A model generated the notes under the pieces. It made no database searches. It had not been told where the DNA came from and saw nothing but the letters and a program-made list of their open reading frames with translations. From Candidatus Levybacteria bacterium RIFCSPLOWO2_12_FULL_41_12 (lineage in GTDB: Bacteria > Patescibacteriota > Microgenomatia > Levybacterales > UBA12049), in the NCBI GenBank assembly GCA_001784155.1, contig MFPL01000007.1, positions 10,101 through 74,100 of the forward strand: 64,000 nt of DNA. The letters are read 5' to 3'. The translations under genes were made by a program, and so were the position numbers. Position 1 is the first letter of the stretch, and the number at the start of each line of letters is the position of its first letter. Below, one piece after another: positions 2,966 through 27,121 of this stretch.

Positions 2966-3993
2966 AAAGCCTAGTGTCAGTCCTTATTGTAAACTGGAAT
3001 TCCAAAGAAAATCTAAAGGATTGTTTACAGTCTCTATTTAAAATAGATTACCCAAATTATGAAGTAATTATAGTAGATAACGGCTCAACTGACGACTCTG
3101 TTAGCTGGGTAAAGAAAAATTATCCAGGAGTAATAATTGCAAAGGCAAATAGGAATTTGGGGTTTGCGGGAGGAAATGAGTTTGGTCTTAAGCACTGCCG
3201 GGGAAAATACATTTTATTTCTCAATAACGACACGTTAGTAACTAAAAGTTTTCTAACAGAGCTCGTAAGCTTTATTGAAAAAGACGAAAAACTCGCTGTC
3301 GTACAGCCTGCGATTCTTTTTCATCGTCCAGGAGAGTCACTTCATGGAAAGATAAATTCGGTAGGGAGTTTTATTTTAAATAGTGGATTTCTCTACCACC
3401 TTAACTATGGAAAAGAATTTATTGAAAAAGATTATGGAGAGTCATATGAGATTTATACTGCCTACGGAGCGTGTTTCCTGGCAAATAGAAAACTTGTTAA
3501 TAAGCTTGGACTTTTTGATCCAGAGTACTTTGCTTACTTTGAGGAGACTGATTTCAGTCACAGGGTCTGGCTTTCAGGCCATAAAGTGAAGATTTATACA
3601 AAAGCTGTAATCTACCATAAGGGTGCAAAGACAGCCCAAAAATTACCTAGCTCTTTTATACAGTACCACTCTTTCAAAAATAGACTCTTTACCTACCTAA
3701 AGAATTTCGGTCTGGTAAATATTTATAAAATATTTGTACCGCATCTATTTATTTGCGAGGTATCTTCAGTTCTGTATTTGGCTATGAGGCGACCTGGGTA
3801 TACGTTAGCAATTCAGAAGGCTATTCTCTGGAATATTATTAAGGTGGGGAAACTTCTTCGGGAAAGACGCAAAGTTCAGGAGGAAATCAGAAAAGTAAGA
3901 GATGCGGATTTCATTCCCAAATTGACTAGGAAAGTTAATATTAGGTACTATTATTACTTATCTAGCGGAGAGCTTGAAAAATACAGAGAATGA
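2962..3993 (+). CDS. GT2 (GT-A) glycosyltransferase
   Basis: VSVLIVNWNSKENL...VIIVDNGSTDDS...FLNNDT motif set. C-terminal hydrophobic helix. ATGA overlap with upstream gene. Confidence 0.8.
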   Translation: MKSLVSVLIVNWNSKENLKDCLQSLFKIDYPNYEVIIVDNGSTDDSVSWVKKNYPGVIIAKANRNLGFAGGNEFGLKHCRGKYILFLNNDTLVTKSFLTELVSFIEKDEKLAVVQPAILFHRPGESLHGKINSVGSFILNSGFLYHLNYGKEFIEKDYGESYEIYTAYGACFLANRKLVNKLGLFDPEYFAYFEETDFSHRVWLSGHKVKIYTKAVIYHKGAKTAQKLPSSFIQYHSFKNRLFTYLKNFGLVNIYKIFVPHLFICEVSSVLYLAMRRPGYTLAIQKAILWNIIKVGKLLRERRKVQEEIRKVRDADFIPKLTRKVNIRYYYYLSSGELEKYRE

Positions 3994-6476
3994 ACCTAAT
4001 TAAGAAACCCCTTGTCCTAATCTTCTTGGTTGGACTTTTAGCATGGCTTCCCACGTTATTTTTTTGGTTCTTTAAGGGCTATGAGGCGACGTGGTTATTA
4101 GGAGTTGGCGAGTATAATATCCCTAATTTATTAAAGGGCCATGCCTTCCTCTATTATATTGACTGGAAAATATTTGGATGGAATCCTTGGGGATGGTATC
4201 TCACTAGCATCGTTCTCCATCTTATAGCATCTTTCCTTTTGTTTAAATTTGTGTATTTAGTATCTAAGAATAAACTCCTTTCTCTTATAGCATCTATATT
4301 TTTTGTCGCTAATACCTCGTACAACGATGTCTTAACCTGGGGAAGTTTTAATTCATATTATCCACTCCTTTTAATATTGATGCTGGGATCTTTAATAGCA
4401 TTTGCTAAATATAGGGAAACTAAGAGGAAGATCTTTTTAACTATTTCAACAGTTTTTGCTTTCCTTGGATTCTACACTAGAGAAACGGGGTTAGTCATTG
4501 TGCCAATGCTTACAATATTTGATCTCATATTTTCTAATAATCTTAAAAGCAGACAAACAATAATTGATATTGTCAAAAGACAAACCCCTTTTTACATTGC
4601 TTTCTTAACCTTTTTCGTCATAAGGTCTATTTACGGTGGAACTCCGGGTGATAGCGCAGACAGTAATGTAAAATTACAAATGAGATTCGTTGAGGACGGA
4701 CTTTATTTAGAGTACGCGAAAGCTGTTATTCTAACAATGGGAAAGCTCATCCCTCCCCAAATCATACCTTATCCAGCGTTAAATTTAATTAGAGAGAGTT
4801 TTTCAAAGCTTGGACCCGAAAATACATACTTCTTCCCTGCTCTCGGATGGATAATTTTTGGCGGACTAGGGGCAGTAATGATAAAGTTGAGAAAGTCTAA
4901 CTACGCGAGAATTTTTCTATTTTTTCTATTATGGCTTGGATTATTTTCTGTATTCGTATCATTTGCAGTTCCTAATACTCCTGAAGTGTTAGCTAGAGCA
5001 TATGAGTACAATACGATGCGTTATCGATACTTTGCGTTTCTGGGAACCTCTATTCTCCTCGCGGTGATCTTAGCAGAGATATTCAAGAAGAGAGAAAGAG
5101 CGTTAGTTTTTGTAGCGTCAATTGTAGTAATTTTAAATCTGGTAATGTTATGGAGGATAGAGCAGAAAGTTTACGCGCTTTCCTATAAACCGGCAAAAGA
5201 ATTTAATATGAGATTGAGATCATTTTTTCCCACACTTCCCAAAGAAGCCGTTTTCTACTTATATCCACATTCCTCCGGTTTAGGCGACTATCTCCTGGAA
5301 TGGTACCTGATAAAGGGAGATTCCTATTTAAATCTGATTGGAGAACCATACAGGATAGAATCGCAGATAATTGCAGTGATTGATAAGGTAAAAAAAGGCA
5401 AAATAGAACTGTCTAACGTATTCTTTCTCGATTACAATAGCAGTGGTCTTTTAAATGAAACGGATAAGGTAAGAAGAGAACTTTTAAATCAGAAGAGCTA
5501 TCCGGTAAAACTTAATCGCGCAAGCGAAGCGCTTTATAAAAGCAATTCATTTGAAGGGCCAGTTGTCGACATTCCTTATAATATTGACCTTAGCCTGGGT
5601 ATTTCAGAAAACAGTCAATTTGTTGGAAAATCTTCCGATAGTCTAAAATTTAGAGCTTTGGTAGATTATTCCTCTGATAGGATTAATTACTTGAAAACTG
5701 TTTCCGTTTCTACCGCCTATACTATGTCACAGCGGGAGGGAGAACCGTTTTATCATGTTTTACCAGGGAATTTGATCGATGGCAATACGGGAAATAGATA
5801 CTCTTGGATTGCAGATGCATGGAACCCCTGGATACAGGTAGATCTGGGAGAACAGAGGGAGATTATTGCCGCTACGTGGGGATCAATAGATGGATCTACC
5901 AGAGTGCCAGCAACCTATTCGATATCTGTCTCAAAAGACGGAAGGGAATGGGTAAAAGCAAAAGATGTTAAAAATGCCAATTATGCTAAAAGCATTGATG
6001 TTTTTGATAAGCCGTATATAGCAAGGTTTGTTAGAATGGATATAAACACAACTTCCGGAGGAGACTTCGTAATGCTGGATGAGTTTGAAGTGATTTCCTA
6101 CTCAAGTAAAAATATTCTCTTATACTACAAAGATAGAGATAAACTATTGACTGACTACTACAACATGTTTGACTTTATGGGAGGTCAGGATGATTTATCT
6201 TATTTAAGAGACAAGGGACTAGATACTTATTGGGGCAAGTTGTCCTGGGAGACAAATAAGACAGCGCTGGGGGAAAATGGTCAAGTTTTATATTTTCAGT
6301 ATAATATTAATAATTCATTCCAACAAATAACCTTAGATCTCAATGAAGGAGAAATCTATTCCGGAAGCGGTAATTTTCTTAAAAAATATGTGAAATCAGT
6401 AGTAATAGATTTTGGACGAACCCCTTTTAATTTCTCATTGGATTCTTTACAATTTATACCTAGATTTAAGTTATGA
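3990..6476 (+). CDS. Polytopic GT-C-like membrane glycosyltransferase fused to a C-terminal F5/8 type C (discoidin/CBM32-like) domain
   Basis: About 400 aa of repeated hydrophobic helices (PMT/ArnT/AftD-like). Then an extracytoplasmic ~430 aa region containing NLIDGNTGNRYSWIADAWNPWIQVDLGEQREI..TWGSIDGSTRVPATYSISVSKDGREW, a discoidin signature. Confidence 0.6.
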   Translation: MNLIKKPLVLIFLVGLLAWLPTLFFWFFKGYEATWLLGVGEYNIPNLLKGHAFLYYIDWKIFGWNPWGWYLTSIVLHLIASFLLFKFVYLVSKNKLLSLIASIFFVANTSYNDVLTWGSFNSYYPLLLILMLGSLIAFAKYRETKRKIFLTISTVFAFLGFYTRETGLVIVPMLTIFDLIFSNNLKSRQTIIDIVKRQTPFYIAFLTFFVIRSIYGGTPGDSADSNVKLQMRFVEDGLYLEYAKAVILTMGKLIPPQIIPYPALNLIRESFSKLGPENTYFFPALGWIIFGGLGAVMIKLRKSNYARIFLFFLLWLGLFSVFVSFAVPNTPEVLARAYEYNTMRYRYFAFLGTSILLAVILAEIFKKRERALVFVASIVVILNLVMLWRIEQKVYALSYKPAKEFNMRLRSFFPTLPKEAVFYLYPHSSGLGDYLLEWYLIKGDSYLNLIGEPYRIESQIIAVIDKVKKGKIELSNVFFLDYNSSGLLNETDKVRRELLNQKSYPVKLNRASEALYKSNSFEGPVVDIPYNIDLSLGISENSQFVGKSSDSLKFRALVDYSSDRINYLKTVSVSTAYTMSQREGEPFYHVLPGNLIDGNTGNRYSWIADAWNPWIQVDLGEQREIIAATWGSIDGSTRVPATYSISVSKDGREWVKAKDVKNANYAKSIDVFDKPYIARFVRMDINTTSGGDFVMLDEFEVISYSSKNILLYYKDRDKLLTDYYNMFDFMGGQDDLSYLRDKGLDTYWGKLSWETNKTALGENGQVLYFQYNINNSFQQITLDLNEGEIYSGSGNFLKKYVKSVVIDFGRTPFNFSLDSLQFIPRFKL

Positions 6477-9463: not shown

Positions 9464-10486
9464 TTAATTGTTTCTTCTAATTTTATTTCCTGGGTCATTA
9501 AATATACTTTTTACTACGTATTTTGGTCTGCCTTTAACTTCCTCAAAAATCTTCCCCATATATTCTCCCAGAATGCTTATTCCCAAGAGTTGAAGCGCTC
9601 CGAAGAAGAGAATTGCTATAAGAATTGAAGTGACGCCGTGCGGAATGTCAGGGTTAATAAGCTTAAGAATTACAAGAACTATGATTGCAAGGGACGCGAA
9701 GACAAATATTACAGAAGAAAGAAGAGCTAGGAATTGAAGCGGAACGTAGGAGAAGGAAAAAATTCCCTTTGTAGCCCAGTTAAGATTTTTTAGTATACTG
9801 TTGGTTGTCTTGCCGAACATTCTTTCAGGTCTAGTGTAAGGAACACCAGTCTGCTTAAAGCCGACCCATGCGCGAAGTCCTCTAAGAAATCTGTCTCTTT
9901 CTGGAAACTCTTTTAGTGCGTCTACTACTCTTCTGTCTATTAGAGAAAAGTCCCCTGCATCTAAGGGAATCTTTATGTAAGAAAGCTTATGAAATACACG
10001 ATAAAACGACTTGTATAAGAAAACCATGTAAAGTGGCGCCTCACGTTTTACACGTACACCATACACGATGTCAAATCCTTTTAGCCATTTGGGATAGAAT
10101 TTCTCGATAATTTCCGGAGGGTCCTGAAGATCTCCATCGAGCAAAACTACTGCGTCTCCTGTCGCGATATCCATGCCGCTTGTGAAGGCCATTTGCGAGC
10201 TGAAGTTTCTTGAGTGATTTACCCCGATTACATGCTTATCCTGTCTACAAAGACTTGCTAATACACTTTCAGTATTATCCAGACTACCATCGTTGACGAA
10301 AATAATTTCATAATTCAGCCCGATTTTTTTGAAAATTTTAACAAGCCTTTTGTGCATTATGGGGATTGCACGTTCGTCGCCGTAGCATGCAATAATTGCA
10401 GAAATCTTTTTCCTTTTAAGTCTGTTTTTCATATACAATAAGATTTGTTCCACAGTAGATTCTATTGAGATATGGGATATTTTCAA
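9464..10486 (-). CDS. GT2 polyprenyl-phosphate glycosyltransferase (DPM1/ArnC/GtrB-like) with two C-terminal TM helices
   Basis: ISAIIACYGDE...FVNDGSLDNTESV...LLDGDLQDPPE motifs. C-terminal ILIAILFFGALQLLGISILGEY membrane anchor typical of GtrB/ArnC. True start may be the internal MKNRLKRKK (about 10429), which reduces the overlap with the upstream gene. Confidence 0.75.
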   Translation of the reverse strand: MKISHISIESTVEQILLYMKNRLKRKKISAIIACYGDERAIPIMHKRLVKIFKKIGLNYEIIFVNDGSLDNTESVLASLCRQDKHVIGVNHSRNFSSQMAFTSGMDIATGDAVVLLDGDLQDPPEIIEKFYPKWLKGFDIVYGVRVKREAPLYMVFLYKSFYRVFHKLSYIKIPLDAGDFSLIDRRVVDALKEFPERDRFLRGLRAWVGFKQTGVPYTRPERMFGKTTNSILKNLNWATKGIFSFSYVPLQFLALLSSVIFVFASLAIIVLVILKLINPDIPHGVTSILIAILFFGALQLLGISILGEYMGKIFEEVKGRPKYVVKSIFNDPGNKIRRNN

Positions 10487-11171
10487 GGATTGGCTCGACA
10501 GCTTTTATTAGCTTTGCCGGCCTTTCGGGGAAAAAGAAAGGAACTATTCCGAAGAAGCACTGTTTCCTTACCTGAAACCCGTTTCTTTCAAACCATCTAT
10601 TCAGAGTGGGCGGCCAGTATGATTTTTCCTCGTGTTCCCTGTGATAAGTTGAAACCTTTTCCATGATTTTCATAATCGGGCTGTATCCATTGGGTTCTGC
10701 TACGATAATTACATCAGCAAGCTTGCTAATCGCGTTTATTCCTTTTTGAGGTTGATAAAAATGGTGCAGAACTCCTCTTACTACAGCAACATCAAATTTT
10801 TCTTTAATTTTTTTATCAACTACATAAACACTTGAGACCAAAAAATTTATTCTTTTGGCGTCTTTTTTACGAATCTTTTTTTTTGCAATCCTCACCCCTT
10901 CTTCAGCATAGTCAAAACCTACAATTTTTTTTGGGCTTAACTTCTGATACAGCTCGAAGGTATAGGTTCCGTCTCCGGATCCTACATCAAGTATCTTCAG
11001 CGGTTTCTTAAATTTTTGTGATCTTATTGCTTTTAAAATACCATCCGATTGTTTTTTTGACGCTACAACAGCAGAATAAATATTTTGGTCTGTATAAGCG
11101 TAACCACCAAGCATCTTGACGTCTCTATTAAATTTTGAAATATTTTTTTCTCTATCTCTTCTTCTCTTCAT
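10416..11171 (-). CDS. Class I SAM-dependent methyltransferase
   Basis: ILDVGSGDGTYTFEL motif I. VVRGVLHHF. Confidence 0.7.
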   Translation of the reverse strand: MKRRRDREKNISKFNRDVKMLGGYAYTDQNIYSAVVASKKQSDGILKAIRSQKFKKPLKILDVGSGDGTYTFELYQKLSPKKIVGFDYAEEGVRIAKKKIRKKDAKRINFLVSSVYVVDKKIKEKFDVAVVRGVLHHFYQPQKGINAISKLADVIIVAEPNGYSPIMKIMEKVSTYHREHEEKSYWPPTLNRWFERNGFQVRKQCFFGIVPFFFPERPAKLIKAVEPILENIPYLNRIYCGTNLIVYEKQT

Positions 11172-11172
11172 A

Positions 11173-11700
11173 TTATCGTCTTAGGTTTACATACCAAGGC
11201 TTATTATTCTTTACCATCTCTCTTACGATGCTTGGAATTTCCTTAACGTCATCTGGCCATCTTGCTTCAATATTACCAAGAATTTTTAAAACTTGCTTGT
11301 CTTCTAAAGGCCAATGGGATATCCCATCATGCGAATAGTCTTTGTCTCTTCCGGAACCGACTAATCTCACGGGAATCTTTTCATAATTTATATAATTACG
11401 TATCGTTTCAAAAGGTCTGTATAGAAGAAACGTTGTAATCGAATAGGTGAATGGAATTTTCCCTTCAAGAGCCAGTCCTATTGCTATTCCCATCATAGCT
11501 TGTTCCGATGCGCCTACGTTAAGGTACCTATCCGGGAAGTCATCACGAATCCTATCCCACATACCGTAGCCAAGATCTCCCGTCACGACCCAAATGTTCT
11601 TATTTTTTAACATTTGAGAATGCAGGGAAGCTGCGAATGCTGCTCTTTGATTATCTTTAATAGTCATGTAATAATTCCATCGCGAGAGTGAAATCCTCAT
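11173..11700 (-). CDS. Transketolase C-terminal-section subunit, truncated (Pyr domain only, 175 aa)
   Basis: GASEQAMMGIAIGLALEGKIPFTYSITTFLLYRPFE (pyrimidine-binding domain). Ends about 130 aa short of the plus-strand paralog at 25143..26093. The next gene on the same strand starts immediately, leaving no room for the missing C-terminal domain. Confidence 0.65.
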   Translation of the reverse strand: MRISLSRWNYYMTIKDNQRAAFAASLHSQMLKNKNIWVVTGDLGYGMWDRIRDDFPDRYLNVGASEQAMMGIAIGLALEGKIPFTYSITTFLLYRPFETIRNYINYEKIPVRLVGSGRDKDYSHDGISHWPLEDKQVLKILGNIEARWPDDVKEIPSIVREMVKNNKPWYVNLRR

Positions 11701-12385
11701 TGCTCATTATGTAATAATGCGCCCCCTGATCTTTCAAGAAGGGGAATTGATTTACTTTCGTTTCAGCAAAAATTATATTTTCTTTTTTGCTTTTCAAAGC
11801 CTTAACTATTTGCTGAGTGTCATGCCCGTTAATTCTTTTTATATCGGGAGCAAATCCTTTTAGCCTTTTATATAAGGAGTCTTTGGGGATCGGAGCGTAT
11901 GCTCCCCAGCCGTTAACGTTAATCAAAATCTTCAAATTATTAATTTTCTGATCTCGAATAATTCTTAGTGATTCCCATATACTTCCTTCGGTTGATTCTC
12001 CGTCAGAGATCATGCAATATACATTTTTACCTCTATTTGAAAGCGCAATGCCCAAAGCTATTGGAAGCCCTTGTCCTAGACTTCCCGTTGATACATCAAC
12101 TCCAACTGCTGGATTCCGATCAGGATGCACATGCAGCTTTTCGGATTCGCCTGCTTTTAATAAGCCGTATTTTTCTAAAATAGTGTACAGCGCTATTCCG
12201 GCATGACCATTTGATAAAATAAATTTTTCGTTTTTTGATTTGATACTATAAACTGCATCTATCAGATCAACACTACTCAAACATGATCCCAAGTGAGATA
12301 AATTCAGTTTGTGAGAGATTATAAGAATTCTTCTTCTGATATCTCTTTGTCCTTTAGAAAGTTTTTTTAAGTCGTATTTATTCAT
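11657..12385 (-). CDS. Transketolase N-terminal-section subunit (TPP-binding)
   Basis: GHAGIALYTILEKYG, STGSLGQGLPIALGIA, ISDGESTEGSIWE motifs. Confidence 0.75.
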   Translation of the reverse strand: MNKYDLKKLSKGQRDIRRRILIISHKLNLSHLGSCLSSVDLIDAVYSIKSKNEKFILSNGHAGIALYTILEKYGLLKAGESEKLHVHPDRNPAVGVDVSTGSLGQGLPIALGIALSNRGKNVYCMISDGESTEGSIWESLRIIRDQKINNLKILINVNGWGAYAPIPKDSLYKRLKGFAPDIKRINGHDTQQIVKALKSKKENIIFAETKVNQFPFLKDQGAHYYIMSNEDFTLAMELLHDY

Positions 12386-13331
12386 CCGTCAATCTATTCT
12401 GAACGAGCCAATTATAAGTTTTGCTTAGTCCTTTTTCAATCGAGTATTTTGGTTTCCAATTCAACATTTTTTTAGCTTTCGTTATGTTTGCAATCCAATG
12501 GGGATTATCCCACATTCTTTTCTCAAATCCTCCCTTGATCACTTTGGTTTTTTGGCCTGTCATCTTAAAAAGAGTTTTTACAATCTCATCGTTTGTGTAT
12601 TCATGTCCGGTACCGGCATTAATTATTTCACCCGATAGCTTGCTTGATTTTTTTAACGCAGCAACATAAATATCTATGAGGTCGTCAATAAATATAAAGT
12701 CACGTCTTTGCTTGCCGGGGGTAAGCATTATCGGACGTTTCGCAATCAGTGCATGCATAATTGTCGGAATAAATCTGTCTTTTTGCTCATATGGTCCATA
12801 TACGGAGAAAGGTCTAATGGTAACGATGGGTTTTTTATATTGGTACGAAAAAGCCTGGCATAAAAGCGTCTGGGAGGCTTTGGCTGCTGCATAAAAACTT
12901 ATCGGTTCTAAAATATCAGCCTCTTTCATTGGCTTGGGCTTGAGTCCATATTCTGAGGAAGACCCCGTGTTAACAAAAATTTTATAATCTACGTCAATAG
13001 TTGCATAGAGTAATTCTAATGTCCCGTTTACGGATGTTGTGATAATTTGTTCTGCATCTTCTTGATTTCTGTACGAACCATAAGTAGCCAAATGAAATAT
13101 AGCCGTTGGGGATATTTTTTCCATTAACTTCTTCAAAGACTTTTTAGTAGGTGGAGCTGCGTGAAGCGTTATATTTTTTTTTATTTCTTTAAGTCTCCAG
13201 TTGTCTGAGGATTTTCTATGTATAACATGAACTTCATATCCCAGCTTTACAAGACGGCGTGTTAAATTAGCTCCAATAAAGCCTCCTCCTCCTGTGATGA
13301 CAATTCTTTTACTCGATGAGCCTGCCCTCAT
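12378..13331 (-). CDS. NAD-dependent sugar epimerase/dehydratase (SDR, extended family)
   Basis: RIVITGGGGFIGANL Rossmann motif. YAAAK catalytic YxxxK. Confidence 0.75.
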   Translation of the reverse strand: MRAGSSSKRIVITGGGGFIGANLTRRLVKLGYEVHVIHRKSSDNWRLKEIKKNITLHAAPPTKKSLKKLMEKISPTAIFHLATYGSYRNQEDAEQIITTSVNGTLELLYATIDVDYKIFVNTGSSSEYGLKPKPMKEADILEPISFYAAAKASQTLLCQAFSYQYKKPIVTIRPFSVYGPYEQKDRFIPTIMHALIAKRPIMLTPGKQRRDFIFIDDLIDIYVAALKKSSKLSGEIINAGTGHEYTNDEIVKTLFKMTGQKTKVIKGGFEKRMWDNPHWIANITKAKKMLNWKPKYSIEKGLSKTYNWLVQNRLTDE

Positions 13332-13381
13332 TTCGCTACATTATAGTTTATATGGTAAAATCAAAGCAAATCATCATCCCG

Positions 13382-15979
13382 ATGAAGAAAATTAATTTTT
13401 TATTCTTGCTCGTTATACTCGCAGTCGTTGTTTTATTTTCCTTGGGAAAAACCCTGGACTACTATTTCTTCACTGACGATTACGCATTTTTGTATTATCT
13501 CGGAAACAATCTTGAATTTGGATGGCCATACAACTCAGTCCTATCTATATTCAGCCCTATATATAAGCTTTTCGGAACCAATGCTCAGCCTTATTTTACC
13601 TTAGCTGTAGTAACTTATTTTTTTGCTTCAGTAAGCGTTTTCTTTTTTGCCAAAGCTTTAACAAAGAACTTACTGGTTTCCTCAGTAGCCTCGGTTATTT
13701 TTGCAACCGGCTATATTGGGCTAGATCAATTTAGCATGATCGCTGTTTCGATAATTAACAACTTGAATGTTATTAATGTCAGTATTACTTTGATACTTTT
13801 AATTTATTGGATCGAAACAAGGAAGCTCAGATACTATTTCTTAACTTTTTTTATGTTTTGGTTTAGTCTGCTTCTTTTTCCACACAGAGCATATCCTTTG
13901 GTTTTATTTCTGCCTTCTCTGGAATTAGTACTTAGTTTTAAACCGCGAAAACTCAAAAATATGCTCAAGCAAGTAGTAAGCTTATTTTTAAGATACATAC
14001 CCTTTCTCATTGTTGCAGTCCAGCGTGGAGTTTTTTCTTACGGTACACATGGCACCGAAAATGTTCATCTTTTGAATCTGGTTGAAACAGACAGCAAGAT
14101 CTACACGCTTTTTAATCCGTTATTTTTTAAAGAACTTTTTGCAGTGTTGGGTAAGTTCGTGTTATTGCCTTCATTTACGGATTTCTTTAAATACGTACCA
14201 AGTCAGGATTTTTACTCGTTTGTGGGAGTTGCCACATCTCTGCTGGCAACTGCCATGTCGATAGTTATTTACAGACGTGAAAAGCAAAAAAACGGCAGAG
14301 TGATTTTTGCTGTTTTTCTTTTGACAATACAAAGTTACGCTGGAAACATGTTTCTAAACGTAGATTTTGATGCTAACGGCCCGGTAAATAGATACTTAAC
14401 AATATCGTTTCTTTTTTATTCTATTTTGATTTCACTGTTTTTTTATTTGTTTCTTCAGATATTGTCTAAGATAAATGTTAATGCAAAAAAGAGAATTTAT
14501 GCGACCCTGGCATTTTTTCTTATTTTAGTTCTTGCATCACTCTCCAGAGATTATGAGGAACGGGTCCTTGAAGACCGAAGTCAGCCTGCGATAAAATTTT
14601 TTAAAGAATTAAAGACTTATGTCCCCGCGCTTTCAGACTCAAATTACAACATATTTTATTTTGATAGAGCGTCTTATTATCCCGTATCTTCTAGATTTGG
14701 AAATGTACTTCTCAGCGCAGCTATGGGCAACAGCGTCAACCTGGCGTTTCCTTACGGGATATCGGTTGATTCGGTTAAGATAACGGACACTTTCGAAGAT
14801 TTTCTACGTCTGGTTTTTTATACACCAGAGGGTAAAAAACCTGTTTACTATACGTTTTATAACGATGAGAGTGGTCTTAAAGACACAACAGACGATGTAT
14901 TCAGTCTTTTAGAAAGTGGTGGTTCTACCGTGATTTCAAGCGATAAGATAACATACAAAAACGAACAGGGAATTAATGCGGTAAGCATAAATACAGCGGG
15001 AGTATCAAGCCTTACCCCGCTTTCATTAAGGATGAGTCTTCAAGCAACCCCTCTTCCGCCGTCAGCGTTTGCGTTTCCTTACTCTTTTAACGCAAGCCTA
15101 ACGGAGTCTATTTCGGAGAGTGAAAAAGAGAAAATTTTTAAATATCTTCTTTCTCGAGAGAAATATTATGAAAGCGTGAGGGTTCAGGTTGAATCCATAC
15201 ACGTTGGTAAGAAGAACCCTGCGTCGTATTTAGTTGATGATAATCCTGACACCAACTGGATTTCCGATCAAAGCAGATGGGAAGTGGGTATAAAGCCTTG
15301 GATTAAAATAGATCTCTCAGAGGAGAGAAGCATAGGGACGGCTCTTTGGAGACAGTCTCCTTCCCGTGCTGTAGAAGATTTTACAATTAATGTTTCAAGT
15401 GACGGCGAGAACTGGACTGGTGTGAAGAATTTGAGCAAGCGAAACATTTACTCCGACAATAGTCTGGTGGCGGTCGATTTCAATCCCGTTAATGCCCGTT
15501 ACGTAATGCTTACGATTGTAAGTCTATCGACGGGCCCAGGTCCGAGTTTGGCGGAAATAGAACTATTAGAAGATGAATTTAATAGGATGGATATAGAAAA
15601 GGCATTCGGAATGAAAGATAACCCTTTTGCGAGTATCTCTGATGTTGAGGAAGTTGCGCAGGCGTATGCGTATTTAGAAAAAAACGCAAAGTTAAAGATA
15701 AAAACATTTACAAACAAAGACGATCCCGTGTCCAGTGCTGTGCTAGGTGAAATTCCTATCTTTCTGGATGGAGCCTATCATGATTACGAATTTCAGATAC
15801 CTCAAGGCGGGACTCATCTCAAAGAAATAAGACTTGAAGCCAATTTTCCCGCAAGTTTTAATGTTAGTCGGGTGCTCATAGAAAATCTGTCCAAGGAAAA
15901 AGTTCTTGAGGAAACCCGAAAAAAGTGTCTCGAGTTTACAGGGATAGATTCCTGGAGAAATCCTTTCGATTGTAGCTAG
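13382..15979 (+). CDS. Polytopic GT-C-like membrane glycosyltransferase with a C-terminal F5/8 type C (discoidin) domain. Paralog of 3990..6476
   Basis: Start moved to the internal ATG (MKKINFLFLL) so it does not overlap the divergent gene. TDDYAFLYY loop motif followed by many TM helices. C-terminal LVDDNPDTNWISDQSRWEVGIKPWIKIDLSEERSIGTALWRQS...FTINVSSDGENW discoidin signature. Confidence 0.6.
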   Translation: MKKINFLFLLVILAVVVLFSLGKTLDYYFFTDDYAFLYYLGNNLEFGWPYNSVLSIFSPIYKLFGTNAQPYFTLAVVTYFFASVSVFFFAKALTKNLLVSSVASVIFATGYIGLDQFSMIAVSIINNLNVINVSITLILLIYWIETRKLRYYFLTFFMFWFSLLLFPHRAYPLVLFLPSLELVLSFKPRKLKNMLKQVVSLFLRYIPFLIVAVQRGVFSYGTHGTENVHLLNLVETDSKIYTLFNPLFFKELFAVLGKFVLLPSFTDFFKYVPSQDFYSFVGVATSLLATAMSIVIYRREKQKNGRVIFAVFLLTIQSYAGNMFLNVDFDANGPVNRYLTISFLFYSILISLFFYLFLQILSKINVNAKKRIYATLAFFLILVLASLSRDYEERVLEDRSQPAIKFFKELKTYVPALSDSNYNIFYFDRASYYPVSSRFGNVLLSAAMGNSVNLAFPYGISVDSVKITDTFEDFLRLVFYTPEGKKPVYYTFYNDESGLKDTTDDVFSLLESGGSTVISSDKITYKNEQGINAVSINTAGVSSLTPLSLRMSLQATPLPPSAFAFPYSFNASLTESISESEKEKIFKYLLSREKYYESVRVQVESIHVGKKNPASYLVDDNPDTNWISDQSRWEVGIKPWIKIDLSEERSIGTALWRQSPSRAVEDFTINVSSDGENWTGVKNLSKRNIYSDNSLVAVDFNPVNARYVMLTIVSLSTGPGPSLAEIELLEDEFNRMDIEKAFGMKDNPFASISDVEEVAQAYAYLEKNAKLKIKTFTNKDDPVSSAVLGEIPIFLDGAYHDYEFQIPQGGTHLKEIRLEANFPASFNVSRVLIENLSKEKVLEETRKKCLEFTGIDSWRNPFDCS

Positions 15980-16009: not shown

Positions 16010-16789
16010 ATGAAGACTGTAATTCTTTGTGGAGGTATAGGATACAGACTGAAAGAGGAAACAGAGTTTAAGCCAAAACCCATGGTGCAGATAGGAGGAA
16101 AGCCTATACTCTGGCATATAATGAAAATGTATGCCCATCACGGATTTAACGATTTTATAATTGCTCTCGGATATAAAGGAGACCTCATAAGGCAATATTT
16201 TCTGAACGAACAAAACATGATTTATGATTTTACTTTGAATACGTCTACAGGAAAATCTAAGCCTCACAAAACAGGCATCAAGTCCGATAAGTTTGTCATT
16301 ACCTTTGTAAATACAGGAGAAGAATCTCTTCCCGGAGAGAGAATTTTAAGAATAAAAGACTATATTCCAAAAACTGACAAAAACTTCATGGTTACATATG
16401 GAGATGGGGTATCGGATATAAGCATAAAAGATGTTGTTAAATTTCACATAAAACAAAAAACAATTGGAACTATTACAGGTGTGCATCCGCGTACAAAATG
16501 GGGTCTTCTCAATATTGATAAAGTGGATAAGACCGCTACATCTTTTGTAGAAAAACCCGTGCTTAATCAGTGGGTGAACGGCGGGTTCATGGTTTTTAAA
16601 CGAGAGTTCTTTAATTTCCTAAAACCAGGGGAGATGGAGCATGAAAGTCTCAAAAGATTGATAAAGAAGAGACAGTTGTCGATTTATACTCATGATGGAT
16701 TCTGGCACTGCATGGATACCTATCCTGACGTAGATAATTTAAATAAGATGTGGAAAGAAGATCCGAAGTGGAAAATATGGCAGGATTAA
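16010..16789 (+). CDS. rfbF: Glucose-1-phosphate cytidylyltransferase
   Basis: Near-canonical RfbF: MKTVILCGGIGYRLKEETEFKPKPMVQIGGKPILWHIMKMY...GGFMVF...GFWHCMDTYPD...KMWKE..PKWKIW. Confidence 0.9.
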   Translation: MKTVILCGGIGYRLKEETEFKPKPMVQIGGKPILWHIMKMYAHHGFNDFIIALGYKGDLIRQYFLNEQNMIYDFTLNTSTGKSKPHKTGIKSDKFVITFVNTGEESLPGERILRIKDYIPKTDKNFMVTYGDGVSDISIKDVVKFHIKQKTIGTITGVHPRTKWGLLNIDKVDKTATSFVEKPVLNQWVNGGFMVFKREFFNFLKPGEMEHESLKRLIKKRQLSIYTHDGFWHCMDTYPDVDNLNKMWKEDPKWKIWQD

Positions 16790-17733
16790 ATGGTAAGAAA
16801 ATATTAGTTACTGGAGGAGCTGGCTTCATTGGGTCACACCTGGTATTAGAACTTCTAAAAAATCAAGCGAAAGTTTTTGTTATAGACCTAGAAGCTAGGC
16901 CTAAATCTTTTTTTTCCCTTAATAAACTATCAAATAAAGTAAATTTTAAGATTTTAGATGTAAGAGATAAAAGTAAAGTATTTAGTTATTTTAACAAATT
17001 TAATTTCGATTATATCTGTCATCTTGCAGCAGAGCCAATTGTGGGGGAAGGTTATGACAATCCACATGCAACGTTTGAAACAAATATTATGGGAACAGTA
17101 AATATTTTGGAAGCTGTCAGGAAATATAGAGTAAAAGGCATTGTTGCGGCTTCATCTGATAAGGCGTACGGAAAAACACAAAAAACTTACACCGAGAAAT
17201 CCCCGCTTCGAGGAGACCATCCTTACGATGTCTCAAAGTCTTCCGCTGACCTTATTTGTCAGGCATATTACAAAACTTACGGTATTTCTGTTGTAATAAC
17301 AAGGTTTGGAAATGTATATGGTGAGGGAGATCTACATTTTGACAGAATTATCCCCGGAATTTGCAAAGCCTTAATTAAAAATGATGATTTTAAGATTAGA
17401 AGTAATGGTAAATATGTTAGAGACTACATCTATGTAAAAGATGTCGTAGACGGTTATTTACTATTGCTCCAAAAAATAAACAGAGTACAGGGTGAAGCTT
17501 TTAACTTTTCATCCGCTGAAAACTTATCGGTAGTAGAAGTAATAAAAAAAATCGAAAAGAGGCTTGGGAAAAGGATAAGCTACAAAATATTAAATATTGC
17601 AAAAAATGAAATTCCTTATCAACATTTGGATGATTCTAAGGTGAGAAAGCTGGGATGGAGAACGAATTATAGTTTAGACTCCACTATAGAGCAGATTTTA
17701 GATTGGTATAAACATGATTTTTACAAAAACTAA
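16777..17733 (+). CDS. rfbG: CDP-glucose 4,6-dehydratase
   Basis: Immediately follows rfbF. GKKILVTGGAGFIGSHL, TNIMGTVNILEA, DPYDVSKSSADL motifs. Start taken at the internal ATG (MAGLNGKK); the track ORF begins 27 nt earlier inside rfbF. Confidence 0.65.
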   Translation: MAGLNGKKILVTGGAGFIGSHLVLELLKNQAKVFVIDLEARPKSFFSLNKLSNKVNFKILDVRDKSKVFSYFNKFNFDYICHLAAEPIVGEGYDNPHATFETNIMGTVNILEAVRKYRVKGIVAASSDKAYGKTQKTYTEKSPLRGDHPYDVSKSSADLICQAYYKTYGISVVITRFGNVYGEGDLHFDRIIPGICKALIKNDDFKIRSNGKYVRDYIYVKDVVDGYLLLLQKINRVQGEAFNFSSAENLSVVEVIKKIEKRLGKRISYKILNIAKNEIPYQHLDDSKVRKLGWRTNYSLDSTIEQILDWYKHDFYKN

Positions 17734-18265
17734 AATTAAAGGAGTATTTCTCATTGAGCCAGAACCTAAGAAAGACGAGAGGGGTTATTTTCAAAGAATT
17801 TATGATTACAATGAATTTAAAAAAAGAGATATGAATTTCAGAATGGTTCAGGAAAATCAGTCAATGTCTCTTACAAAAGGTGCTATAAGAGGCATTCATA
17901 TGCAAAAAGCTCCAAAATCAGAGGATAAACTGATTCAATGCATAAAAGGAGCAATATTTGATGTGATAGTGGATTTGCGTTTAGGCTCCAAGACTTATGG
18001 GAAGTTGATTGGAGAAATTTTGTATGAAAATAAAAAAATGATGTATGTCCCAAAGGGTTGTGCTCATGGATTTCAAGCACTTGAGGAGAATACAATTATT
18101 CAATATCCAGTTTCACAGTATTATACCCCTAATTATGAGATGGGAATAAGATGGAATGATCCATTCTTCAATATTAAATGGCCAGTAAAAAACGTAACCG
18201 TATCGGAAAAAGATTCTGCATGGCCTGATTTTATTCCCCATAAAAAAATGAAATCAAAAAATTAA
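17714..18265 (+). CDS. RmlC-like cupin sugar-nucleotide 3,5-epimerase
   Basis: IKGVFLIEPEPKKDERGYF..R.Y and downstream His/Tyr-containing cupin core. 183 aa, typical RfbC/RmlC size. Confidence 0.7.
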   Translation: MIFTKTKIKGVFLIEPEPKKDERGYFQRIYDYNEFKKRDMNFRMVQENQSMSLTKGAIRGIHMQKAPKSEDKLIQCIKGAIFDVIVDLRLGSKTYGKLIGEILYENKKMMYVPKGCAHGFQALEENTIIQYPVSQYYTPNYEMGIRWNDPFFNIKWPVKNVTVSEKDSAWPDFIPHKKMKSKN

Positions 18266-20852: not shown

Positions 20853-22277
20853 TTAGTTGAATTTTCTTAAAACATTTTTTCCTACTCTTCTGGCATTAGC
20901 CATTATTGTTAGGGTCGGAGATTTCGCGGGAAGTGCTTTCCATGTCGAGGAATCGCCACTGTATATTCTATTGGTTTGATGTAATTTCCCATTCTTATCC
21001 ACTGATAATAATGTAGGTACTTCTCTAAAGGGGACTCCTCCAGCGTAATGGACCGTAACGTAATCACTAACCGTTTTTAAAGGAAGTAATCCCAATGACC
21101 GCAATTGTCGCGAGATTTTATTAACCTCATTCCTATGTATTTCTAATTCCTTACGATTCTCCTTATATGATATCTCTAGAACATCTTCATCTCCTTTTTT
21201 CAGTAATCTACAAAATTTATTTTTTGATTCGAATACTGGAAATCTAATATCAGCTATCACTAGCGATGAAATAATAAATGACAATAGCATTGAGGCAATA
21301 ACCTTTGGTAGGGGAATATATTTGAGTGATTTATGTAGCACTTCGGTGTTGAACCTGTAAAGTTGGACAAAAAAAGCTACTAATCCATGATAGGTTTCGT
21401 CACTTAAAATGGCCAACTGGCCGAAATTACTTTTTTTAGAATTAGTTTTTTTTGTTAAAGTTCTAAAATTTAGGCATGCAGTCAAAAAATGGGCTTTTGT
21501 TAAGAATGTTGTTCTGTAGTCGAATAATCCTAAGCTTCTAAGTAAAATTCTCGTGGTATTAATTGAGCCAGCTGCTAGAATTAAATAATTTGCTCGATTG
21601 GTGGACATCACTGAGTTATCAATTGAAAAGCTTTGAATTTCTACATATTCAATTTTGTCCTTAACAGTATAGACTAGCTGATTTGGAATATAGGTAAAGT
21701 TTTTAAACCGTTTTAAGTCTTCTATGCTTGAGCTTGCACGATATGATATTGCGGTCGGTAGTTGATATACCGTATTTTTTAAGTTGGCCTTATTTTTAGC
21801 GGATTGCAAAATTAATCTTCCATGAGTATCAAGAGGGATTTTTAGCTTAAGATTTATAAGTTTTGCCACTTCTTGATATTCCTGCTGGATTATATCAGCT
21901 GGTAACCCAATTTTTTCAAGTTCTTCTTTTGAAAAAAAATCACAAATCCCATCCCAAATTTCGGATAGCCCACCCTTAGCTAGGCTTTGAATAATTTCAA
22001 TATCGCTTTTAATTTTTAAGAGTTGATAGGTTTTGTAAAAAACGTAACTGCTTTTTCTAAGTAAGTCATAGGCGTGACCCGCAGTAGAAGAATCAGTCTC
22101 CGAAAAATTAACCGGTTTTGAAGTCCGTTTCTTACTGTCTAATCCGCCGTCAATTATTGCGACCTGTAATCCTGCTTCGGTTAATGGGTATGCAGCATGT
22201 ACTCCTGCTGGTCCGGATCCGACTATCACAACATCAAATTGAGTATGCGAGCGATATTTATAAACTTTTTTCGTCAT
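20853..22277 (-). CDS. GMC-family FAD-dependent oxidoreductase (sugar oxidase/dehydrogenase-like)
   Basis: N-terminal DVVIVGSGPAGVHAAYPLTEAGLQVAIIDGG (FAD Rossmann). C-terminal GMC block HYAGGVPF...IYSGDSSTW....SPTLTIMANARRVGKNV. Confidence 0.65.
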   Translation of the reverse strand: MTKKVYKYRSHTQFDVVIVGSGPAGVHAAYPLTEAGLQVAIIDGGLDSKKRTSKPVNFSETDSSTAGHAYDLLRKSSYVFYKTYQLLKIKSDIEIIQSLAKGGLSEIWDGICDFFSKEELEKIGLPADIIQQEYQEVAKLINLKLKIPLDTHGRLILQSAKNKANLKNTVYQLPTAISYRASSSIEDLKRFKNFTYIPNQLVYTVKDKIEYVEIQSFSIDNSVMSTNRANYLILAAGSINTTRILLRSLGLFDYRTTFLTKAHFLTACLNFRTLTKKTNSKKSNFGQLAILSDETYHGLVAFFVQLYRFNTEVLHKSLKYIPLPKVIASMLLSFIISSLVIADIRFPVFESKNKFCRLLKKGDEDVLEISYKENRKELEIHRNEVNKISRQLRSLGLLPLKTVSDYVTVHYAGGVPFREVPTLLSVDKNGKLHQTNRIYSGDSSTWKALPAKSPTLTIMANARRVGKNVLRKFN

Positions 22278-23266: not shown

Positions 23267-24295
23267 ATGAAAAAATATGTAGGCATTTTCCCTTACAATG
23301 ATCACAGGTACTTATTGAATGCAGCGTTTAATAAAAATCTAAACGGTCTTGAGACTCCTATCTTCGTGACACTAAAAAAGTCTTTAAAACAGGTAAATAT
23401 AGAAGTAAATACATATGACATAGTGACAAAAGAAGAACTTTATACGTATGTATATTTTGATTTACCAAATCTTTGGAATATCAAAGCATGGGTAAAGATA
23501 ATCTCAAACAAAAACAAAAATATCCTGATCTGCAATGAGCCTCCTATTGTAATACCATTTAATTATTGGAAAATATTTCATACATTCTTTACAAAAGTTT
23601 ATACATGGAATGATAGCTTGGTAGACAACAAAAAATATTTTAAAATACTTTTGCCCAAAACAAGCTTAGGTCTTAACATCAAACCAAAAAAATTTAAAGA
23701 GAGGAAGTTTTTAGTTCTTATAAATAAAAACATACTGCCTTTTTACCCATTCAAAATTATCTTAAAGTTCGGAAAAGAGCTGTATACGGAGAGAATAAGA
23801 GCTATCGAATTTTTTGAGAAGACCATTCCAAAAAAGTTTTATCTTTACGGGCGAGATTGGAACAAACCCAAAAAGCATAATTTAACTGAGAGAATTATTG
23901 GTCCAAAGAAGTACTTGACCTACAAAGGTGAGGTCGACGATAAGATAGAATTATTATCAAGCTTTAAATACTCTATTTGCTTCGAGAACTTAACTGATAC
24001 CACAGGGTTTATTACCGAGAAAATATTTGATTGTCTAAAAGCTAGATGCGTCCCCGTCTATTGGGGTGCTACGGATATAGAAAATTATATTCCGAGGGAG
24101 TGCTTTATTGATTTTAGGCAATTCAAGGACTATGATGAGCTTCTAAAATTTTTAAATTCAATTAGCGAACAGAAGTATGCCAAGTATATAAAAAGCATTG
24201 AGAAATTGTTGTCTGATAAAAAATTTATAAACTTATGGTTTGAAGAAGCTTTTGCAGACTTTTTCATAAAGGATATTTTGGAAATAAAAAAATGA
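23267..24295 (+). CDS. GT10-family alpha-1,3/4-fucosyltransferase-like glycosyltransferase
   Basis: YKFSICFENLTDTGFITEKIFDCLKARCVPVYWG closely resembles the GT10 acceptor/GDP-Fuc motif block of Helicobacter FucT (YKFNLCFENS..GYVTEKI.D......P.YWG). Confidence 0.7.
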   Translation: MKKYVGIFPYNDHRYLLNAAFNKNLNGLETPIFVTLKKSLKQVNIEVNTYDIVTKEELYTYVYFDLPNLWNIKAWVKIISNKNKNILICNEPPIVIPFNYWKIFHTFFTKVYTWNDSLVDNKKYFKILLPKTSLGLNIKPKKFKERKFLVLINKNILPFYPFKIILKFGKELYTERIRAIEFFEKTIPKKFYLYGRDWNKPKKHNLTERIIGPKKYLTYKGEVDDKIELLSSFKYSICFENLTDTTGFITEKIFDCLKARCVPVYWGATDIENYIPRECFIDFRQFKDYDELLKFLNSISEQKYAKYIKSIEKLLSDKKFINLWFEEAFADFFIKDILEIKK

Positions 24296-25146
24296 TAAAA
24301 AATAATCTACCTTTAAGCCTGGAGTTAAAGGCAGCGGAAACAAGAGAAGAAATTTTAGAAATGATAGTAAGTGCCCGTGGAACCCACATTGCGAGTGCGT
24401 TTTCAATAGTAGATTTGGTGGTTTATTTATACAATCATGTTTTAAGAATAAATCCCAAAAAACCGAATGATCCTAAAAGAGATAAGTTTGTCTTAAGTAA
24501 AGGACATGGATGCGCAGCTTTGTATGTTGTTTTGGCAAATCTTGGCTTTTTTCCAAAGAGTGAGCTTGGGAAATACTGCACGAGAGAGGGTATTTTGGGT
24601 GGACACCCCGATAGCACAAGAATACCGGGGGTAGAAACCTCGACAGGTTCTTTGGGTCATGGTTTTCCTGTGGCCGTAGGATTTGCGTTGGCCAGTAAGA
24701 TTAACAAAAGTAATTCTAAGGTTTATTGTATAGTCGGTGATGGTGAATGCAATGAAGGGTCGGTTTGGGAAGCGGCACAGGTAGCTCCGCACCATAAGTT
24801 AGATAATCTAACTGTAATAGTTGATGACAACAAACTTATGATCTCAGGTTTCGCTAAGGATATTCTAAACCCTTTATCTTTAGCGGATAAATTCAGGATA
24901 TTTGGTTGGAATGTTATTGAAATCAATGGTCACAATTTTAAGGAAATAATAACTGCATTTAATGCCAAAACGAAAAATTCTAAGCCTACTGCCATAATCG
25001 CAAATACAATTAAAGGCAAAGGAGTGTCTTTTATGGAAAATGAAAAAGAATGGTACAGTAGACTTCCCAACGAAGAAGAGCTTAAGCTCGCGTTGGATGA
25101 GTTAGATACAAAAATCAAAAAGCTTAAGGGGAGGCTTAAGATATGA
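24292..25146 (+). CDS. Transketolase N-terminal-section subunit (TPP-binding)
   Basis: SKGHGCAALYVVLANLGFF, GHPD....GVETSTGSLGHGFPVAVGFA, VGDGECNEGSVWEA. Confidence 0.8.
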   Translation: MIKNNLPLSLELKAAETREEILEMIVSARGTHIASAFSIVDLVVYLYNHVLRINPKKPNDPKRDKFVLSKGHGCAALYVVLANLGFFPKSELGKYCTREGILGGHPDSTRIPGVETSTGSLGHGFPVAVGFALASKINKSNSKVYCIVGDGECNEGSVWEAAQVAPHHKLDNLTVIVDDNKLMISGFAKDILNPLSLADKFRIFGWNVIEINGHNFKEIITAFNAKTKNSKPTAIIANTIKGKGVSFMENEKEWYSRLPNEEELKLALDELDTKIKKLKGRLKI

Positions 25147-27117: not shown

Positions 27118-27121
27118 AAAT

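Follow-up and report, generated by a model that had tools for sequence, protein, structure and literature searches.

What can a transketolase do without its third domain, and why should one be kept among genes for sugar modification? The question is raised by two overlapping minus-strand genes on contig MFPL01000007.1 of Candidatus Levybacteria bacterium RIFCSPLOWO2_12_FULL_41_12, from which we analysed a stretch of 64,000 nucleotides (the window). The genes encode a split transketolase, with the thiamine diphosphate (ThDP) diphosphate-binding (PP) domain on one subunit, TK-N, and that for pyrimidine binding (Pyr) on the other; we refer to them as the mini pair. An earlier note on this DNA had proposed that the pair lacks the C-terminal transketolase domain (TKC), is functional, and adds a two-carbon unit to a sugar nucleotide rather than serving the pentose-phosphate pathway. 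The best description of the mini pair is a derived branch of the split transketolases from sugar clusters. We put at roughly 45% the probability that it is an active, minimal transketolase-type ThDP enzyme that adds a two-carbon ketol unit to a keto-sugar nucleotide, the product being then reduced by a short-chain dehydrogenase/reductase (SDR), methylated and loaded on a lipid carrier. The genes at the centre of this reading are the following.

12378..13331, minus strand: extended SDR, 317 aa, first gene of the operon; Pfam Epimerase E 8e-48, GDP_Man_Dehyd E 3e-44
11657..12385, minus strand: TK-N, PP-domain subunit, 242 aa; Pfam PF00456 E 6e-12
11173..11667, minus strand (maximal open reading frame to 11700, 175 aa): Pyr-only subunit, probably 164 aa, no TKC domain; Pfam PF02779 only

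Besides Transketolase_N (PF00456, E 6e-12), TK-N matches DXP_synthase_N (E 3e-8) and, weakly and locally, TPP_enzyme_C (E 5e-5), while the sole Pfam match of the Pyr protein is Transket_pyr (PF02779, columns 6-168 of 174, E 1e-18). A Pfam search for Transketolase_C (PF02780) in both subunits gave no match in either. On the 627 columns of NCBIfam model NF004559, TK-N occupies columns 12-279 and the Pyr protein 312-474; columns 475-627, the C-terminal domain, are uncovered. There is no space for that domain after Pyr, because the gap between the Pyr stop codon (11173-11175) and the start of the following methyltransferase gene (11171) is a single base. The earlier note's account of a C subunit with the pyrimidine-binding domain alone and an abutting next gene is thereby confirmed, as are its 242-aa N subunit and the overlap of the two genes. 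Its 175-aa length for the C subunit is probably too long: Pyr homologues, including the 99%-identical 164-aa protein P0001, begin at the position equivalent to ATG 11667, and the true product is therefore probably 164 aa. From this ATG, the gene overlaps the TK-N stop by 11 nt (ATGACTATTAA), and its last residue, R164, is the equivalent of Arg520 in Escherichia coli TktA. We also looked for a TKC domain for the mini pair elsewhere in the window, where the only TKC-like region found by tblastn with TktA belongs to a second split pair, described below. The earlier note had overlooked this second, full-length pair. A 269-aa database protein (P0025) combines PF02779 with methyltransferase domains and shares 95% identity with the window Pyr protein over 76% of it; either a fusion or gene-calling read-through from Pyr into the downstream methyltransferase may explain it.

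The size of both subunits is conserved. Homologue numbers come from a word-indexed search, and lengths were inspected for the best 120 of each subunit. The Pyr protein has 3,289 homologues, and the best 120 comprise 118 of 158-172 aa (64-99% identity), one of 183 aa and one 269-aa fusion; aligned homologues share the C-terminal end ...PWY[IV]NL[RK]R. Among the 4,099 TK-N homologues, 119 of the best 120 are 236-254 aa long and the other is a 207-aa fragment. Catalytic residues were mapped by aligning the fused pair to E. coli TktA and reading the motifs, so that the equivalents below are those of a sequence alignment with no ligand structure. Conservation was assessed in 58 cellular homologues and in 86-87 further ones, mostly from IMG/VR viral contigs; all equivalents are invariant or near-invariant in both sets.

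TktA H26: TK-N H31, invariant
TktA H66: TK-N H61, invariant
TktA H100: TK-N H87, invariant
TktA D155 / N185: TK-N D128 / N158, invariant, with equal 30-residue spacing
TktA H261: TK-N H223 (H223-Y224), invariant, assigned through the shared AHY/WHY motif
TktA R358: Pyr R8, conserved
TktA E411: Pyr E55, invariant, in GASEQ
TktA D469: Pyr D114, 77/86 in the mostly viral set (about 90%)
TktA H473: Pyr H118, invariant
TktA R520: Pyr R164, the final residue, conserved

The ThDP/Mg2+ motif (G-D-G ... N) is present in TK-N as S127-D128-G129 ... N158, the cofactor-activating Glu is present in the Pyr domain as E55, and the equivalents of all five transketolase catalytic histidines (H26, H66, H100, H261 and H473) are invariant in the alignment. 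At the phosphate site (R358, S385, H461 and R520), R8 and R164 are kept and two of the four positions differ: Ser385 is replaced by Gly or Lys, and His461 by Gly, with a new invariant Gly-Arg, G106-R107; G104 and G106-R107 stand in for the His461 region. A decayed gene or frameshift artefact was considered and ruled out by the kept length, C-terminus position and catalytic residues of the homologues. The earlier note had called the truncation genuine, and the homologues of equal length with the same C-terminal end agree. Its proposed alignment with canonical TktA finds the TPP-binding residues kept and the phosphate site partly changed, and the loss of catalytic residues that it named as the mark of a pseudogene is not seen.

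What class of enzyme is this? In the PDB, each subunit finds its best relative in one chain of the Carboxydothermus split transketolase (E 1e-19 for TK-N and 2.5e-21 for Pyr); the alignment of Pyr to 6yaj covers residues 38-193 of 341 and ends at 193. An AlphaFold2 model of TK-N has a mean per-residue confidence (pLDDT) of 91.2, and its best fold match is the N chain of the active split transketolase, 6yak (TM score 0.84). The Pyr model is less confident (pLDDT 73, low in the loops that would face the partner) and matches the Pyr domains of transketolase and DXS. Family scores are low throughout: TK-N and Pyr reach 122.7 and 65.7 bits with NF004559 (cutoff 488), 48.5 and 21.1 bits with TIGR00232 (cutoff 682), and 31 and 35 bits with the DXS model TIGR00204 (cutoff 466). 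By these comparisons the mini pair lies outside the transketolases proper: the TKC domain is missing, the phosphate site is incomplete and the scores fall far below the cutoffs. It likewise lies outside DXS, with an invariant His87 rather than Phe, a low score and no TKC domain. Its order of PP then Pyr on two chains, free of the TPP_enzyme_N / M / C architecture, also places it outside the YerE family; it may be YerE-like in its working without being a member. To our knowledge, all transketolases characterised so far have a TKC domain. A truncated form of the E. coli enzyme is said to have retained activity.

The donor site can be compared directly with that of DXS. Characterised DXS enzymes have Phe in place of transketolase His100, and mutation of His100 opens transketolase to pyruvate (PMC7661550). 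Because the His100 equivalent is kept invariant here, the donor site appears to be of the transketolase rather than the DXS type.

The stop of the SDR gene overlaps the TK-N start by 8 nt. The best solved relatives of the SDR are nucleoside diphosphate (NDP)-sugar enzymes, namely Pal (6bwl, 9e-35), GalE-like proteins and RmlB. As a rule for SDR cofactors, Asp after Rossmann strand beta2 is typical of NAD+-retaining enzymes, and a basic residue there of enzymes using NADP(H). The window SDR has a basic residue at this point (VHVIHRKSS), as do nearly all sampled SDRs flanking TK-N (K, R or H), and its active-site stretch, GSSSEYG, has no Asp-Glu pair of the 4,6-dehydratases. Both features speak against an epimerase or a dehydratase. 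By the cofactor rule, the basic residue indicates an NADP(H)-dependent reductase, and we predict a nucleotide-sugar ketoreductase where the earlier note had named an epimerase. We infer that the SDR acts on the product after carbon-carbon bond formation, as YerF follows YerE.

Is this grouping of genes peculiar to one contig? A scan of one genome per species gave 58 loci, in which open reading frames within 8 kb were clustered. They belong mostly to Microgenomates-type Patescibacteria (Woese-, Levy-, Davies-, Gottesman-, Roizman- and Blackburnbacteria), Omnitrophota and Ratteibacteria. Module counts refer to the 60 loci in which a Pyr gene is present, the window and three metagenome loci among them.

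TK-N: 59/60 loci
Family 2 glycosyltransferase (GT2): 51/60 loci; median identity to the window GT2 69% over 49 tblastn-matched loci
Extended SDR: 45/60 loci, usually directly upstream of TK-N
298-aa Zn-ribbon methyltransferase: 43/60 loci

Usually the genes run SDR>TK-N>Pyr>GT2, the methyltransferase being either divergent upstream or inserted behind the SDR. The window is a variant of this module: a 251-aa methyltransferase stands between Pyr and GT2, and a search of the window for the 298-aa Zn-ribbon methyltransferase found it absent. The module methyltransferases show generic class I similarity only to TylC3-type C-methyltransferases (E 5e-8 to 0.004). A classical 254-aa SDR seems to stand in for the extended one in about eight loci; sought as a possible DprE2-like protein, it gave generic SDR matches only.

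The family extends well beyond these genomes. An exhaustive search of 1.84 billion cluster representatives returned 38 relatives of Pyr at E<=1e-30 and 2,466 at E<=1e-10. Among the best 150, 58 are 140-185 aa long and 67 are full-length TK-C proteins of at least 270 aa, the closest with 41-44% identity; about 50 clusters (at 50% identity) among these 150 are Pyr-only and form one clade. The divergent Pyr-only clusters all come from metagenomes. A neighbour-joining tree places nearly all of the short proteins in a single clade within the split TK-C proteins, with the second pair of the window and a Paenibacillus TK-C grouped among the long proteins outside it. This single tree, which carries no support values, weakly suggests one main loss of the TKC domain.

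Many of the relatives are viral; neither this nor the size of the family had been noticed in the earlier note. Three phage contigs (L068, L069 and L070) carry a coupled cassette of SDR (241-277 aa), TK-N (212-224 aa) and Pyr (159-169 aa) beside, or a few genes from, terminase and portal genes, and at least 498 viral contigs carrying a relative came out of a pattern scan of IMG/VR. We analysed 87 further loci, comprising 79 from the pattern scan, one additional locus and seven metagenome loci; the SDR is present in 83/87, TK-N in 86/87 and Pyr in 85/87. In the viral cassettes (L073-L152), these genes are commonly followed by an FkbM-type methyltransferase and GT8-like, GT1/4, GT17 or GT34-like genes, and frequently adjoin capsid, scaffold, terminase and portal genes. 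None of the 87 further, mostly viral loci has a GtrB-type gene. Because the cassette persists while the glycosyltransferases differ between loci, the invariant unit is SDR, TK-N and Pyr, and the downstream glycosyltransferases vary. PHROGs has no family for TK-N or Pyr, and no close relative was found among GenBank phages (identity at most 31%) or among the plasmids of PLSDB (identity at most 38%), where the annotated matches listed are full-length TK-C genes.

Two metagenomic settings of the cassette are worth recording. In a marine contig type (L066/L067), it is accompanied by five SDRs, a DegT aminotransferase, a 599-aa ThDP enzyme of the AHAS/YerE type and a pantoate hydroxymethyltransferase-like gene (11153-12952), so that two types of ThDP carboligase stand in one sugar cluster; the Pyr protein of this type occurs on 29 contigs, and one source name indicates a Tara 0.1-0.22 um sample. 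On a 68-kb metagenome contig (L065, 4193-11930), the pair adjoins a TAL_FSA transaldolase, a PfkB kinase and a CTP_transf_like nucleotidyltransferase, together with an SDR, a cupin/Lyx_isomer protein, a HAD phosphatase and a PIG-L deacetylase. The arrangement on this contig is reminiscent of the ADP-heptose pathway with its own ketose-phosphate supply.

A link to keto-sugars comes from plasmid NZ_CP054609.1 of Paenibacillus cellulosilyticus, a cultured bacterium (L064, 7094-9924), which has the order rfbF, rfbG (CDP-glucose 4,6-dehydratase), a TylC3-type C-methyltransferase, an SDR::TK-N fusion and TK-C, continuing with a TylF-type O-methyltransferase and glycosyltransferases. The fusion, annotated just as an SDR family oxidoreductase, is a 635-aa protein that joins an extended SDR to TK-N in the same SDR>TK-N order as in the window. 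Its TK-N part is 31% identical to the window TK-N (E 6e-33), and its SDR part too has a basic residue after beta2. The window has a comparable set of genes of its own:

16010-18265, plus strand: RfbF-like nucleotidyltransferase, 259 aa; RfbG-like 4,6-dehydratase-type SDR, 327 aa; RmlC-type 3,5-epimerase, 183 aa

The epimerase match has an E value of 3e-62, and a further 313-aa SDR extends to 19274, followed by a GT2. The segment 16010-19274 looks like a complete pathway for a CDP- or dTDP-6-deoxyhexose, and could supply a 4-keto sugar acceptor.

How, then, might the enzyme work? Precedents exist for the type of reaction: ThDP-dependent branching of 4-keto sugar nucleotides is known from YerE, ErwE and KbDH (PMC12247030). 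Split transketolases have been proposed to branch keto-sugars in miharamycin and amipurimycin, with none shown to do so in vitro (PMC12247030). For the mini pair, gene structure, domain content, kept catalytic residues, gene linkage and family spread are observations; how the subunits assemble, which donor and acceptor they use, what part the SDR plays and what becomes of the product we infer. The subunits would presumably assemble as an alpha2beta2 tetramer like that of the Carboxydothermus split transketolase, with PP and Pyr domains only and TKC lost. A two-carbon ketol unit (dihydroxyethyl-ThDP) would be made from a ketose phosphate or hydroxypyruvate. It would then be transferred to a sugar carbonyl, most likely that of a 4-keto sugar nucleotide, to give a hydroxyacetyl C-branched sugar; a chain-extended sugar would be a less likely outcome. 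The equivalents of Arg358 and Arg520 could serve to bind either the nucleotide sugar's diphosphate or, in a ketose-phosphate donor, its phosphate. The co-translated NADP(H)-type SDR would reduce the new ketone, a methyltransferase would methylate the product, and a GtrB-like GT2 would load the sugar on polyprenyl phosphate for glycosylation outside the membrane. The earlier note's reading is supported in part. The genes are not decayed and stand in a glycan rather than a central-metabolism context, translationally coupled to the SDR, methyltransferases and the GT2; the transketolase-type donor histidines and the Paenibacillus fusion also fit it, and the ketol transfer itself would follow the more tentative steps just described.

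Several points weigh against this mechanism. Acceptance of a ketone has yet to be demonstrated for any split transketolase (PMC12247030). A keto-sugar-making enzyme is not adjacent in most loci, the RfbF-like gene being found in only one other locus (1/61). The GT2 resembles the plain, glucose-transferring GtrB and might carry an ordinary sugar, and the SDR is assigned to NADP(H) by a sequence rule. In true transketolases, Arg358 and Arg520 are sugar-phosphate binding residues; their equivalents are conserved, so the substrates may be sugar phosphates. The gene set of L065, moreover, looks like sugar-phosphate chemistry feeding an NDP-heptose-type pathway.

Three other ways of using an intact enzyme were weighed. 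One is a ThDP carboligase with pyruvate or another 2-oxo acid as donor, as in DXS, YerE and E1, the acyl branch being reduced to a hydroxyalkyl group. All ThDP sugar-branching enzymes characterised to date take 2-oxo acids (PMC12247030), the DXP_synthase_N match at E 3e-8 and the naming of NCBI relatives as 'DXP synthase N-terminal domain-containing' point the same way, and His461 is lost. We nonetheless consider it unlikely, since the pyruvate-disfavouring His100 equivalent, Phe in DXS (PMC7661550), is invariant, as are the equivalents of His26 and His261, which handle the donor hydroxyls in transketolase.

Rather unlikely, too, is a stripped-down pentose-phosphate transketolase acting on sugar phosphates, a housekeeping enzyme in reduced genomes and an auxiliary metabolic gene in phages, whose position in glycan clusters would be incidental or would reflect precursor supply, for example of sedoheptulose 7-phosphate for heptoses. 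Such an enzyme would account for the conservation of all catalytic histidines, of Asp469 (about 90%) and of the phosphate-binding equivalents of Arg358 and Arg520, and it would suit L065, where the transaldolase, PfkB kinase, CTP_transf_like protein, HAD phosphatase and cupin isomerase follow an NDP-heptose logic; virome studies, moreover, class tktA as a carbon-metabolism auxiliary gene (PMC12482060). It sits poorly with the replacement of His461 and Ser385 at the phosphate site and with scores (122.7 and 65.7 against 488 bits) far under all NCBIfam transketolase cutoffs. With few exceptions, a direct coupling joins the pair to an extended SDR of the NDP-sugar type, in the company of methyltransferases and glycosyltransferases, and in Paenibacillus the SDR is fused to TK-N inside a CDP-4-keto-6-deoxyglucose pathway; among the loci examined, the family is absent from the usual pentose-phosphate gene neighbourhoods.

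In a third, improbable arrangement, the substrate would be a lipid-linked sugar: the GtrB-like enzyme would make a polyprenyl-phosphate hexose, which the SDR and the mini-transketolase would remodel at the membrane, much as DprE1/DprE2 remodel decaprenyl-phosphate ribose. The closeness of the GT2 to plain GtrB, conserved at 69% across phyla, would fit, as would a conserved module that has no nucleotidyltransferase or keto-sugar-forming gene and the classical 254-aa SDR that seems to replace the extended one in some loci; the Arg pair could bind the lipid phosphate. The viral cassettes, however, keep SDR, TK-N and Pyr without a GtrB-type gene, the SDR has the full NDP-sugar-type extended fold, and neither subunit has membrane-association features in its sequence. 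A decaying remnant, that is, a split transketolase that lost both its C-terminal domain and its function, would account for the missing TKC domain and for subunits shorter than those of characterised split transketolases, yet it is refuted by the conservation data, with thousands of homologues of equal length and 60-80% identity, invariant catalytic residues, a C-terminus at the identical position across phyla and phages, and a confident PP-domain model.

Transfer of a ketol unit to a sugar carbonyl, followed by reduction, methylation and lipid loading, is the reading we prefer, and the rest of the operon can be set against it. The order is SDR>TK-N>Pyr>methyltransferase>GT2>methyltransferase, with genes that overlap or abut, in agreement with the flanks named in the earlier note (Pfam, NCBIfam). 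The genes downstream of the mini pair, and two membrane-protein genes in its neighbourhood, are as follows.

10416..11171, minus strand: class I S-adenosylmethionine-dependent methyltransferase, 251 aa; Methyltransf_31 E 2e-19
9464..10486, minus strand: GtrB/ArnC-type GT2, polyprenyl-phosphate glycosyltransferase; likely ATG 10432, 322 aa
8807..9457, minus strand: another class I methyltransferase (216 aa), which closes the operon; Methyltransf_31 and Methyltransf_25, E ~1e-12
13316..15979, plus strand, divergent: membrane protein of 887 aa ending in an F5/8 type C (discoidin) carbohydrate-binding domain; F5_F8_type_C is the sole domain detected
3990..6476, plus strand: 828-aa membrane protein, likewise with a C-terminal discoidin domain; F5_F8_type_C E 2e-15

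Orthologues of the 251-aa methyltransferase are found in eight other loci; the 216-aa one is poorly conserved elsewhere, with two matches in other loci. The GT2 has the GtrB fold with C-terminal membrane helices, and is of the GtrB type, which the earlier note had not recognised: it matches Synechocystis GtrB sll0501 (5ekp) over residues 26-329 (E 4e-77) and ArnC (4e-43), and scores 239 bits with NCBIfam PgfS and 155 bits with ArnC, both under their own cutoffs. The 887-aa membrane protein is tentatively a user of the lipid-linked sugar. The 828-aa protein gives a weak, tentative signal of a GT-C glycosyltransferase (PMT_2, E 0.005, 17.4 bits, under the 26.1 cutoff), and save for this sub-threshold match no family was found for the membrane parts of the two proteins. 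GT-C proteins are present in related loci, with PMT_2 at 32.6 bits in L015 and GT-C_AftD in L001. No GtrA-type flippase turned up; no search aimed at GtrA was made. Between two glycan regions lies a gene for a 474-aa protein (20853-22277, minus strand) with an N-terminal FAD/NAD(P)-binding GxGxxG motif.

The second split pair of the window keeps the third domain:

24292-25146, plus strand: TK-N, 284 aa
25143-26093, plus strand: TK-C, 316 aa, Pyr plus full TKC; 4-nt overlap with TK-N

It too is surrounded by glycan-type genes (24292-27841), with a LegB/RmlB/UXS-like 359-aa SDR and a methyltransferase after it and a GT2 and a 342-aa protein before it, and is 31% (TK-N) and 36% (C subunit) identical to the mini pair. 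In the alignment it has Met at Asp469, Gly at His461 and Tyr at the His261 position, and because these positions are altered it is not a textbook pentose-phosphate transketolase. Its TK-C lies close to that of the Paenibacillus sugar cluster in the neighbour-joining tree.

How does the mini pair compare with systems already described? Like the split transketolase of Carboxydothermus hydrogenoformans (ChTK; 6yak/6yaj), it has its PP and Pyr domains on separate polypeptides encoded by adjacent, overlapping genes, and it shares the ThDP and metal ligands and the catalytic histidines; ChTK is the best sequence and fold match for both subunits. Unlike the mini pair, ChTK has a TKC domain in its C subunit (residues 164-312; PMC7661550) and a full phosphate site. 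The window pair ends at the Pyr domain and is without His461 and Ser385, with 242 and 164 aa, compared with PDB chains of 309 and 341 residues (tags included) for ChTK. The split transketolases of miharamycin and amipurimycin, along with 13 Streptomyces cases from genome mining, are likewise two-gene ThDP enzymes in sugar-modification clusters, and both the Paenibacillus SDR::TK-N with its TK-C and the second pair of the window resemble this kind. Those enzymes, uncharacterised in vitro, belong to actinomycete natural-product clusters and keep TKC, whereas the window family is without it and is linked with lipid-carrier glycosylation of the GtrB type or with glycosyltransferases of phages.

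With YerE/YerF (yersiniose A), other YerE-like enzymes and KbDH (aldgamycin), the mini pair would share the proposed logic, a ThDP-dependent branch on a 4-keto sugar nucleotide followed by reduction. YerE, however, belongs to the decarboxylase family (TPP_enzyme_N/M/C) and KbDH is an E1 alpha/beta enzyme of the alpha-ketoacid-dehydrogenase type (E1_dh), both with 2-oxo acid donors, while the window enzyme has a transketolase-type donor site. The GT2 is related to GtrB (4e-77) and ArnC, which invites comparison with GtrA/GtrB/Gtr and ArnC/ArnT: as in the Arn pathway, we propose that a modified sugar is made in the cytoplasm and then placed on undecaprenyl phosphate. Unlike in these systems, the GT-C partner is weakly indicated in the window, and the combination of transketolase, SDR and methyltransferase is unlike ArnA/ArnB. 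The 'partial transketolases' of a hypervariable region in SAR11 (Fonsibacter; Chen et al.) are probably the same kind of gene, a likeness drawn from their description; they are mentioned there in passing, without family definition, residue analysis or functional proposal.

Taken across cells and viruses, these observations lead us to a broader proposal, which we hold tentatively and with the odds somewhat against it: that there is a large unrecognised 'mini-transketolase' family (PP and Pyr, about 370-410 residues on two chains), always with an NADPH-dependent sugar reductase, which makes an undescribed C-branched or chain-extended sugar, and that this unit has spread in Patescibacteria, Omnitrophota, probably the hypervariable regions of SAR11, and hundreds of phages, decorating cell surfaces or virions. 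The interest of the family rests on its size and spread, its presence in phages, its loss of TKC and its potential for ketone-accepting biocatalysis. For enzymology, a transketolase scaffold apparently under strong selection without its third domain bears on the long-open role of TKC, and if the proposal is true, these would be the first transketolases with ketone acceptors. A transketolase that accepts keto-sugars would also give alpha-functionalised tertiary alcohols, an unmet goal named in a recent review of the field (PMC12247030). For viromics, auxiliary genes labelled 'transketolase' may be wrongly assigned to the pentose-phosphate pathway or to carbon fixation: the cassette suggests that at least some virome tktA hits may belong to glycan tailoring, and if the proposal is true, many of the viral 'tktA' hits currently taken for auxiliary genes of carbon metabolism would be glycan-tailoring genes. 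For microbiology, the mini pair hints at a modified sugar, as yet undescribed, that uncultured bacteria of ultra-small size would carry on their surfaces and that would occur in phage-associated glycans.

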